Source of the DNA: Promethearchaeia archaeon
Lineage (GTDB): Archaea > Asgardarchaeota > Lokiarchaeia > Sigyniarchaeales > SOKP01
Length of the DNA stretch: 64,000 nt
Assembly: GCA_046483985.1 (NCBI GenBank)
Contig: JAWOCD010000110.1
Span: forward strand, 53,023 to 117,022
Direction: 5' to 3'
Both the position numbers and the translations under genes were made by a program. Positions 14,615 to 17,762 of the stretch are shown here, in pieces (positions within the stretch are counted from its first letter, which is position 1; the number at the start of each line of letters is the position of its first letter). Under the pieces are notes generated by a model. It had not been told where the DNA came from. It worked only from the letters and a program-made list of their open reading frames with translations, and did not search any database.

Positions 14615-14707
14615 GGCCCTTGACGGTCGGAGTGGTCTCTGACGCCAGACTTCAAATCTGGTTATCCTGCGGAGGGATAGGGGTTCGATTCCCCTCGAGG
14701 GCCGCCA
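14615..14707 (+). tRNA. selC: tRNA-Sec (UCA), 9/4 fold, CCA encoded
   Basis: 9-bp acceptor GGCCCTTGA/TCGAGGGCC, 7-bp D stem, anticodon TCA 14652-14654, long variable arm, 4-bp T stem GGGG/CCCC; directly upstream of SepSecS. Confidence 0.95.
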
Positions 14708-14749: not shown

Positions 14750-16120
14750 ATGGTTGATTTAAGTAAGATAAATAAATATTTCGAAAACTCGAAAATCCCC
14801 AAAAATATGCTCAAACGGGGTCAGCTTGTTTTGAATGAATTCTTGAAACCCATTAAAATCCTTTTCGAACAAAAGGCACTTCCTGATGAGCCATGGAGTC
14901 AAGAGCAAATCAAATATTTGTTAGATACGCTTTCCCATATGGATACGGATAAGGACAGAAAGGCCGCCCGGGTGGGCGAACGGGAAGCACGAATTGCCTC
15001 GAAACTTAATCTAGAGATCTCAGCTGGCTTCTGTCATGGAATAGGTCGAAGTGGATTTTTAACTGATCCCCAACCGAAAGCTCCTGGGGGGTCCATCATG
15101 TATGATATTGCAAACTACGTTGCGCGTGACTTTTTACGAAAATTTGGATTGCCCAATATCAAAAAAGCAATTGTTGTGCCTATTGCAACTGGTATGTCTT
15201 TAGCTCTTTGTTTAGCCGCATTGCGTCCCGATTGGGATAATGGTTCTCTGCTTCATAAGAGAAAGATTTTGGTCCCCCGAATTGACCATAAATCCCTCAT
15301 CAAGGGGATCAAATTGGTTGGAGTTACTCCAAAAATAATCGATGGGAGGATTTTCGGAGATAGTGTCCGTGTTCCTATAGAAGATATTAAGGAGGCATTT
15401 GACGAGGACTGTTTTGGTATTATATCTGTTACCAGCTTTTTTCCCCCGAGAGAGCATGACGCCCTCAAGAAAATAAGTAAATTCGCCAAAAAGAAAGATT
15501 TATGTCACATTGTTATTAATGCCTACGGAGTACAGAGTCCAGAGTGGATGAAATTGATTCGCTCCGCTATCGATGCGGGACGAGTGGATGCCATTATTCA
15601 ATCTACGGACAAAAATGTATTGACTCCCGTAGGCGGAGCAGTTATTGCCTCTCCCTCGAAAAAAGTTATTGACACTATAAGTCAAACATATGCCGGACGT
15701 GCTTCTGCCACTCCCGTGGTAAATTTTCTCGTTTCTATTCTTTCTTTAGGAAAGCAAGGATATGAAGAACTAATAGACAAACAGCAACGACATCATAATT
15801 TACTCAGGAAAAAACTACAAAAATTCGCCGAAGAAATCGATGAACGGATCTTGGATACATTTAATCCTGTAGCTATCGCTATGACTTTAAATCATCTGCC
15901 AGAGGAAAAGTTAACTCAATTAGGTGGAGCGCTCTATAATTTGAGGGTAACGGGACCGAGGGTCTATAATCCAGATGAAAAAATGTTCGGATTTTGTTGT
16001 GAAGATTATCCGTATCCCTATATCGTTATGAATGCGGCAATAGGCTCCCGCAAATCGGACATTTTAACCGCAATAGAGCGACTTAAAAAAGCCTATGCTC
16101 AAGTTAAAAAAACCTCCTAA
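14750..16120 (+). CDS. spcS: O-phosphoseryl-tRNA(Sec) selenium transferase (SepSecS)
   Basis: MDTDKD..AARVGEREAR, HGIGRSG.L..PQPKAPG, QSTDKN.LTPVGG, Y.GRASA. Confidence 0.96.
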   Translation: MVDLSKINKYFENSKIPKNMLKRGQLVLNEFLKPIKILFEQKALPDEPWSQEQIKYLLDTLSHMDTDKDRKAARVGEREARIASKLNLEISAGFCHGIGRSGFLTDPQPKAPGGSIMYDIANYVARDFLRKFGLPNIKKAIVVPIATGMSLALCLAALRPDWDNGSLLHKRKILVPRIDHKSLIKGIKLVGVTPKIIDGRIFGDSVRVPIEDIKEAFDEDCFGIISVTSFFPPREHDALKKISKFAKKKDLCHIVINAYGVQSPEWMKLIRSAIDAGRVDAIIQSTDKNVLTPVGGAVIASPSKKVIDTISQTYAGRASATPVVNFLVSILSLGKQGYEELIDKQQRHHNLLRKKLQKFAEEIDERILDTFNPVAIAMTLNHLPEEKLTQLGGALYNLRVTGPRVYNPDEKMFGFCCEDYPYPYIVMNAAIGSRKSDILTAIERLKKAYAQVKKTS

Positions 16121-17298: not shown

Positions 17299-17417
17299 AT
17301 AAAAAAATTTTTATTCTTTTGTGTGTTTTGATTGAATATAGAAGATTTTAATACAAAATTGGTATAATGTCATATAGGGGATTTTTCCCTTAAAATAATG
17401 GATTATATCAATGCAGT

Positions 17418-17572
17418 GGTCCCGTTGCTTAGCTTGGTTAACATGCCCAGGTTTTTGAGCTTGGTCAACAAGCGCAGGTCTTATAAATGGCCCGCGGACA
17501 TACAAAGAAACCAAATAAGTGTCCGTGTTCAGTAAAAACCTGAGATCCCGGGTTCAAATCCCGGCGGGACCA
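17418..17572 (+). tRNA. tRNA-Ile (UAU) with a D-loop intron (~27-29 nt) and an anticodon-loop intron (51 nt)
   Basis: Acceptor GGTCCCG/CGGGACC + A, D stem GCTT/AAGC, anticodon stem CAGGT/ACCTG, loop CT-TAT-AA, T arm CCGGG-TTCAAAT-CCCGG; BHB/BHL-like folds at both inserts. Confidence 0.8.
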
Positions 17573-17762
17573 TGTTCTTTCTTTTCTTTTGGTAACAAAG
17601 CATTTCGATGTAATTTTTTACCAATGATTAGAAATTTTAAGGAATAAAATCAACTAAATAATAATAACTAAAAAAATTTAATAGTACTGGGTTGTATAAA
17701 GTTAGTATAAATACTATTAAAAAACATACTTAAATTTACTAACATTTAATAAGTGACTATTT

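Follow-up and report, generated by a model that had tools for sequence, protein, structure and literature searches.

A tRNA-Ile(UAU) gene with two introns is the probable AUA decoder of a Loki-type Asgard family in which TiaS was not found

The tRNA-Ile(UAU) gene and its surroundings

The window, by which we mean the whole stretch of 64,000 nucleotides that was analysed, belongs to a MAG of 4.06 Mb with 35% GC in 128 contigs (97% complete), whose named relatives are Promethearchaeota/Promethearchaeia, i.e. Loki-type Asgard archaea. A complete tRNA-Ile(UAU) gene is located on its plus strand at 17418-17572, with a precursor of 155 nt, a mature tRNA of 75 nt and no encoded CCA. The Rfam tRNA model RF00005 matched this segment with 44.8 bits, against a gathering score of 29, and aligned end to end over model positions 1-71, leaving large inserts at two sites, the D loop and the position after CUUAUA. 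When both were cut in silico (17441-17469 and 17487-17537), ARAGORN called the product tRNA-Ile(tat), 75 nt long and with a standard cloverleaf, and when the D-loop insert alone was cut, it called tRNA-Ile(tat) with a 51-nt intron. These results confirm the preliminary description of the locus as a tRNA-Ile(UAU) gene carrying two introns. The cloverleaf that remains after intron removal has a 7-nt anticodon loop with U33 and reads UAU, and no other anticodon, at positions 34-36 (17482-17484, +). Its sequence context is that of an isoleucine tRNA (A73, A35, U36, A37, A38 and the pair C4:G69), and A73, C4:G69 and U9 are all present as had been described.

The three exons, all on the plus strand, divide the cloverleaf between them. 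Exon 1 (17418-17440) holds the 5' strand of the acceptor stem, U8 and U9, the 5' strand of the D stem and the D loop up to A21; exon 2 (17470-17486) holds the 3' strand of the D stem, G26, the 5' strand of the anticodon stem and the loop CUUAUAA; and exon 3 (17538-17572) holds the 3' strand of the anticodon stem, the variable loop AGAUC, the T arm, the 3' strand of the acceptor stem and A73. Upstream, a TATA-like box read from the sequence, TTAAAATA (17390-17397, +), lies 21-28 nt before the first tRNA base and is a putative archaeal promoter, and the gene is followed by a T-rich trailer, TGTTCTTTCTTTTCTTTTGG (17573-17592, +), likewise read from the sequence, which may act as a terminator. The fold of the whole precursor has a z-score of -5.0, and none of 200 shuffles was as stable.

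ARAGORN without intron mode did not call the gene in the window, and most interrupted tRNAs were missed or miscalled by it in both modes, in the window as well as in the genome. With its two introns, the gene thus escapes ordinary tRNA finders. A whole-genome Rfam tRNA search, in which 150 of 253 first-look candidates were scored, also lacked the gene in its output.

A selenocysteine unit was observed ~1.3 kb upstream of the tRNA-Ile gene, consisting of a tRNA-Sec (14615-14707 of the window, Rfam 61 bits) directly upstream of a SepSecS gene (14750-16120, Pfam 390 bits). In two relatives, the tRNA-Ile(UAU) orthologue is located within ~1-1.3 kb of the SepSecS orthologue.

Predicted bulge-helix-bulge folds of the two introns

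The anticodon-loop intron (17487-17537, +) is 51 nt long. In the minimum-energy fold of 17474-17542 (z = -3.7), the 5-bp anticodon stem is followed inward by C32 opposite two A's, a 4-bp central helix in which U33-U36 pair with GUAA of the intron, a 3-nt AAA bulge on the 5' strand, a 3-bp helix and a 9-bp hairpin. The pairing of TTAT with intron GTAA beside an AAA bulge, which had been noticed by eye, is therefore the same in the computed fold. As a bulge-helix-bulge (BHB) motif, the structure has a canonical 5' bulge and H and h' helices, and its 3' side is relaxed, with the 2 nt AA opposite C32. The intron position had been given as ambiguous between 37/38 and 38/39; the ambiguity does arise from a run of A's, and both registers yield an identical spliced product, but the position can be refined. 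Under the BHB rule, each strand is cut two bases past the central helix, which puts the intron at 38/39, and the 5' AA of the intron is invariant in relatives while its last two bases vary (AA, AC, AU), which also favours 38/39.

Several registers are possible for the 29-nt D-loop intron (17441-17469, +) in the BHB scan. In the register used here, the cut follows gene base 23 and the sequence resumes at base 53, giving an hBHBh' motif with a 3-bp outer helix, a 4-bp central helix (UGGU/GUCA), the bulges UA↓A and AC↓A, and an inner helix (CAUGC/GCUUG) that has one U-U mismatch in the window's copy. This register leaves exactly the mature D arm of three intron-less orthologues (L023, L153 and L180), and the two lines of evidence together place the intron between positions 21 and 22. 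The D arm obtained after splicing has a 4-bp stem and a normal 10-nt loop, so that the concern that the spliced D loop might be too long is not borne out. The D-arm region alone folded no better than its shuffles (z = -0.7).

Within 17431-17470 of the window, the 3' end of the D-loop intron, AGCTTGGTCAAC, nearly repeats the D-loop sequence AGCTTGGTTAAC found at the 5' border of the intron. Of the two, the 3' copy contributes strands h' and H and a bulge to the BHB motif (GCUUG, GUCA and AC), and splicing therefore accounts for part of the conservation of the repeat.

Heavy interruption of Asgard tRNA genes has been published, including D-arm introns that tRNAscan-SE misses (PMC11291895; bioRxiv 10.64898/2026.10.13.758758). 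In the window's genome, most tRNAs have introns similar to those described here, and the splicing endonuclease EndA is encoded by a single gene (PF01974, 100 bits, 202-aa frame, C32:38560-38793). The tRNAs Lys-UUU, Thr-CGU and Ala-GGC have ~30-nt T-loop introns at the same position with the core TTATCC(G/A)TTT(C/A)GG(G/A)TAAATT, the loci being C37:41308-41411 (-), C37:40035-40136 (-) and C99:45532-45665 (+); judged by the shared core, this looks like an intron that was copied between tRNA genes.

TiaS and CAU tRNAs

TiaS is the enzyme that most archaea need for AUA decoding. Its TCKD domain (TiaS_TCKD, PF22641) had no match in the window's genome, and the same search was positive in four archaeal control genomes. 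The FLD domain (TiaS_FLD, PF08489) had one 18-bit match in the genome, to a 486-aa ORF (L001). We rejected this ORF as a TiaS candidate and regard the match as due to chance: it is below the cut-off, the ORF matches no other family, and it does not resemble real Asgard TiaS (E = 4). Genuine Asgard TiaS proteins have the domain order TCKD, FLD, OB and zinc ribbon and score 100-140 bits. TiaS was found in 113 of the 201 genomes sampled across the phylum. None was found in the 40 sampled members of the window's own family (f1), nor in the sampled genomes of six other families (f2, 0/3; f3, 0/4; f12, 0/19; f13, 0/3; f16, 0/5; f21, 0/3), and most of the other 20 Asgard families sampled had it in nearly all genomes.

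For the tRNA inventory of the genome, we used scans that tolerate inserts in the D, anticodon, variable and T loops; 44 tRNA species were recovered, and Phe, Ala(UGC) and Arg(CCG) were missed among the expected ones. An initial scan by T arm and acceptor missed tRNAs with T-loop introns, and anticodon-only listings were noise. The partner of the UAU tRNA is a tRNA-Ile(GAU) at C50:58164-58267. Two CAU tRNAs were identified, namely the initiator (C37:91378-91511), marked by A1:U72 and GGG/CCC in the anticodon stem, and a single elongator (C24:61353-61519). No third CAU tRNA was detected in two independent scans, which also missed Phe, Ala(UGC) and Arg(CCG), and since three expected tRNAs were missed, a heavily interrupted tRNA-Ile2(CAU) could be hidden in the genome.

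A tRNA-like element was also observed at C56:8115-8214 (-) of the window's genome. It has a good acceptor stem and T arm (GCTCCAG ... AGGGGTTCAAATCCCTT CTGGAGC G), and in the fits neither a D arm nor an anticodon arm could be recognised. The element may represent a heavily interrupted tRNA, such as one of the three missed ones.

Among the alternatives to a UAU tRNA that decodes AUA by itself, the one that survives best is that a cryptic tRNA-Ile2(CAU), together with an unrecognised non-TiaS enzyme, reads AUA and that the UAU tRNA is accessory. Room for such a gene is left by the tRNA scan, which was incomplete by at least three expected tRNAs, and some bacteria are known to carry both tilS and a TAT tRNA gene (PMC3575796). 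Against it stand the two independent scans, which gave two CAU tRNAs only, and the fact that TiaS is missing from whole families. A published tRNAscan table points the same way: Atabeyarchaeota_2 is listed there with Ile-TAT, one Met, one iMet and no Ile2, and a Freyarchaeia genome in the same table has Ile2-CAT and no TAT (PMC11291895). We thus regard a redundant role of the UAU tRNA as very unlikely.

Conservation of the gene in the family

BLAST with the gene gave matches running through the introns in 47 of 60 family genomes, and 34 orthologues were seen in the family, of which 30 were tabulated and four were added later. The exact 15-mer around the anticodon, GCGCAGGTCTTATAA, was present in 28 of the 40 family genomes sampled, 27 of them with a single copy and one with two, and occurred once in the window's genome; its reversed control gave at most one match, and the 15-mer was absent from all 160 genomes of 26 other families. 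A looser pattern recovered the gene in four of five family genomes that had been missed by the first BLAST or the exact 15-mer. One family genome that is 100% complete (G040) yielded no copy with the patterns tried. Phylum-wide matches to the 15-mer with two mismatches were discarded, because they were as numerous as those of the reversed control and the inspected ones (f13 and other families) lay in coding sequence.

The tabulated orthologues share an invariant core and differ in ways that preserve pairing. The loop CUUAUAA, and with it the anticodon, as well as A73, C4:G69 and C5:G68 were invariant in 30 of 30. The acceptor, anticodon and T stems were fully paired in all of them, with double compensatory changes in the acceptor stem (pairs 2, 3, 6 and 7) and the T stem (pairs 1 and 2), and among the orthologues as a whole the anticodon-stem pair 28:42 is A:U, G:C or U:A. 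In the D stem, 13:22 is a C-A mismatch in 13 of the 30 copies.

The anticodon-loop intron was kept in 34 of 34 family orthologues, and the other introns come and go. The D-loop intron was present in 27 of the 30 tabulated copies, and the number of introns per orthologue ranged from one to four, the extra ones being a second D-loop intron, a variable-loop intron or a T-loop intron. U33-U36 pair with RUAR of the anticodon-loop intron, and the stem of the intron hairpin covaries among family orthologues (GGACA/UGUCC, AGACA/UGUCU, GGACC/GGUCC and AGUCAG/UGACU).

A conserved ACA marks the start of the loop of this hairpin (17502-17504, +). In 28 of 29 distinct family sequences, it follows immediately on the 5' strand of the hairpin (intron offset 14-15), unlike the remainder of the loop, which varies freely, and it was also found in the divergent copies of G147, G138 and G141 and in the family f2 (G089). 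We considered an H/ACA guide within the intron and rejected it, because the ACA is in the terminal loop after the 5' strand and not 3' of a lower stem; no pocket and no K-turn were seen in the intron, and no Rfam H/ACA family matched it at E <= 1.

These patterns bear on the possibility that the gene is a pseudogene or relic, disabled by its inserts, in an organism that reads AUA by something else. That ARAGORN misses the gene, that the 3' bulge of the anticodon-loop intron is relaxed and that tRNAscan-SE flagged the Ile-TAT of Atabeyarchaeia as 'possible pseudo' (PMC11291895, supplementary table) would be consistent with decay. However, the acceptor, anticodon and T helices of the 30 tabulated orthologues are kept paired by double compensatory changes around an invariant anticodon loop, the intron helices covary too, similar introns interrupt most tRNAs of the genome, and no alternative AUA decoder emerged from the TiaS search and the CAU tRNA scans, so that we give a pseudogene hardly any credence. 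The preliminary description had named an unexpressed gene lacking conservation beside an intact TiaS and tRNA-Ile2(CAU) as an outcome that would speak against a functional UAU tRNA; what we found is a gene conserved with compensatory changes in a family without detected TiaS.

Several public MAGs (JBHL... records) are named Hodarchaeota, Hermodarchaeota or Thorarchaeota, yet they behave as members of the window's Loki-type family. Five such mislabelled MAGs all lacked a detected TiaS and all had the orthologous tRNA, and at least one of them is identical to a family member (G189). Since these labels clash with family membership, record names are an unsafe guide to lineage.

In one genus of the family (g4), two loci (L154, G040:C27; L155, G147:C2) carry a tRNA-Ile(GAU) at ~1500-1600 of each locus on the minus strand, with a 20-nt intron that splits the anticodon at 34/35 and a perfect central helix CGGC/GCCG. 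Read naively, the anticodon of this gene is GAU or UAU; the BHB register gives GAU, and the gene was dismissed as a UAU tRNA.

Use and meaning of AUA codons

AUA is in regular use in the window's genome, at 21.8 per 1000 codons and 24.5% of isoleucine codons. We compared 124 AUA codons with homologues from other Asgard families (26 alignments); they were aligned with I in 35%, V in 21% and L in 14%. This profile is that of AUU/AUC and differs from that of AUG, so that the codon is not only in use but also aligned at Ile-like positions. A tRNA of other identity, or a code in which AUA is read like AUG and recoded, e.g. to Met as in mitochondria, is accordingly scarcely credible: U34 could in principle pair with G as well as A, and no modification enzyme that would restrict it was identified, but in homologues from other families AUA aligns with I/V/L and not with M, an Ile identity fits A73 and the A35-U36-A37-A38 context, and MetRS needs C34 (PMC11685878).

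UAU tRNAs in other Asgard families

Among the seven families without detected TiaS, UAU tRNAs were located in the window's family, f2 and f13. In the sister family f2 (G089), the UAU tRNA carries a canonical intron at 37/38. In f13, which corresponds to Atabeyarchaeia, a UAU tRNA was present in three of three sampled genomes, and in one of them (G023) it lies at the exact coordinates of the 'Ile TAT, possible pseudo' entry in the supplementary table of PMC11291895. For the remaining families, one genome each was searched by BLAST with family sequences, an outcome that counts as no verdict on a UAU tRNA: f16 (G041) gave no UAU tRNA, f3 (G001) gave a GAU tRNA only, and f12 (G060) and f21 (G053) gave matches only to the last ~30 nt of the query, i.e. 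the T arm and acceptor end.

The introns of these tRNAs offer a clue to the origin of the UAU anticodon. In f2 (L173) and f13 (L164/L165; G034 and G023, two parsed), U34 faces a G of the intron, and a helix is formed between C32-A35 and UGAG. A CAU tRNA of the TiaS-positive family f5 (L049, L050 and L058) has a 37/38 intron with the same end, UGAG-NN↓A, as in f2 and f13, and with a C34:G pair. The common position and end of the intron in the CAU tRNA of f5 and the UAU tRNAs of f2 and f13 suggest that the UAU tRNA may have arisen from a CAU tRNA by a C-to-U change at position 34; the CAU tRNA of f5 may be Ile2 or Met.

Discussion

To decode AUA without also misreading AUG is a classic problem, with different solutions in the three domains. 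We consider it highly probable, on comparative grounds, that the gene described here encodes a functional elongator tRNA-Ile(UAU) that serves as the AUA decoder of the organism, whose lineage would have lost TiaS together with the agmatidine-dependent tRNA-Ile2(CAU). Since TiaS was not found, only two CAU tRNAs were recovered, and AUA is common and aligned with I, V and L, the codon is very probably decoded by this gene alone. The idea that a UAU tRNA replaces the route through TiaS and tRNA-Ile2(CAU), which was raised in the preliminary description, is thus supported by the lack of TiaS matches in the 40 family genomes, the two CAU tRNAs and the compensatory changes.

In the pathway that we propose, the 155-nt precursor would be transcribed from its own TATA-type promoter, EndA would cut both BHB introns (D loop 21/22 and anticodon loop 38/39), and the exons would be joined by a ligase and CCA would be added. 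An archaeal/eukaryotic-type IleRS would then charge the tRNA, its conserved arginine reading a hydrogen-bond acceptor on base 34, and U34 would pair with the A of AUA. Bases that offer this acceptor are U, pseudouridine, G, I and agmatidine, and C lacks it (PMC11685878); on this basis the charging of a U34 tRNA by IleRS is plausible.

TiaS-independent decoding by a UAU tRNA is already known in Nanoarchaeum, Korarchaeum and ARMAN, and here it is described in an Asgard family. A published survey lists a UAU tRNA in only two of 167 archaeal genomes, those of Nanoarchaeum equitans and Ca. Korarchaeum cryptofilum (PMC6000648, citing Ikeuchi 2010 and Mandal 2010). As in the window's gene, the UAU gene of Korarchaeum has an intron, and its GAU partner has none (PMC6000648). 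The two cases were described as gains in single species (PMC6000648), whereas here the gene is fixed family-wide, with 34 orthologues and one to four introns per gene, and occurs also in f2 and Atabeyarchaeia. A similar gene is the tRNA-Ile(UAU) of ARMAN-2, -4 and -5, whose genomes lack TiaS and tRNA-Ile(CAU) and whose anticodon-loop BHB intron was cleaved in vitro by recombinant EndA (Fujishima et al. 2011, PMC3239211). In ARMAN, this intron has 25 nt, is located at 37/38 and is of strict hBHBh' form (PMC3239211), whereas that of the window's gene is 51 nt long, located at 38/39 and relaxed in its 3' bulge; the window's gene also has a second intron in the D loop, and its host is an Asgard archaeon, ARMAN belonging to DPANN. 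In bacteria, Mycoplasma mobile has likewise lost the C34-modifying enzyme and replaced it by a tRNA-Ile2(UAU), but that tRNA has no intron and an unmodified U34, and its use needed a Trp-to-Arg change in the Zn domain of IleRS as well as ribosomal adaptation (PMC3575796). Archaeal IleRS has a different C-terminal reader (PMC11685878). In the literature searched, no paper joined TiaS with Asgard or agmatidine with the truncated term Lokiarchae, and none discussed a UAU/TiaS-less arrangement for Asgard archaea, although one supplementary table lists the Ile-TAT of Atabeyarchaeia.

The preliminary description called this a eukaryote-like solution, which holds only for the outcome. In eukaryotic cytoplasmic tRNA-Ile(UAU) (yeast, S. 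pombe and C. merolae), the UAU tRNA is dedicated to AUA, the intron is always located beside the anticodon and the anticodon is paired to the intron (PMC11912914, PMC9602550); an anticodon-adjacent, anticodon-pairing intron is equally kept in all 34 family orthologues. The C. merolae gene has additional introns in other arms, as here (PMC11912914, PMC9602550). In eukaryotes, however, Psi34/Psi36 are formed by Pus1 while the precursor still holds its intron, and the UAU tRNA is partnered by an IAU tRNA (PMC11912914, PMC9602550), whereas the window's genome has one TruA-family gene and its partner tRNA is GAU, not AAU/IAU. A dedicated or extra Pus1-type gene was not found in this genome, which has a single PF01416 (TruA/Pus1 family) gene. 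This is the usual state in ordinary archaea. UAU is still presented as a eukaryotic rescue in one review (PMC8879553). The UAU swap has already been published for Nanoarchaeum, Korarchaeum and ARMAN, and the pattern is therefore archaeal as much as eukaryotic.

A U34 that is unmodified or of xm5 type is expected to misread AUG. No mechanism guarding against this was identified in the genome with its single TruA/Pus1-family gene. One speculation, which we hold to be improbable, is that the anticodon-loop intron is obligatory because it programmes a modification of the wobble base, e.g. Psi34/Psi36, on the precursor by means of its cis hairpin and the ACA at fixed distance from U34. Intron-dependent wobble modification of tRNA-Ile(UAU) is thought to be a eukaryotic invention. 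If the intron did programme such a modification, an intron-dependent, safe UAU decoder would predate eukaryotes and would exist in their archaeal relatives, and cultured Loki-type strains could be used to test for it.

The window's Loki-type family, its sister family and Atabeyarchaeia use the UAU solution without a detected TiaS, and other Asgard families keep TiaS. Pipelines that miss the gene or call it 'pseudo' leave such genomes without an annotated AUA decoder. With both arrangements present in one phylum, the switch from CAU to UAU is open to study among close relatives.
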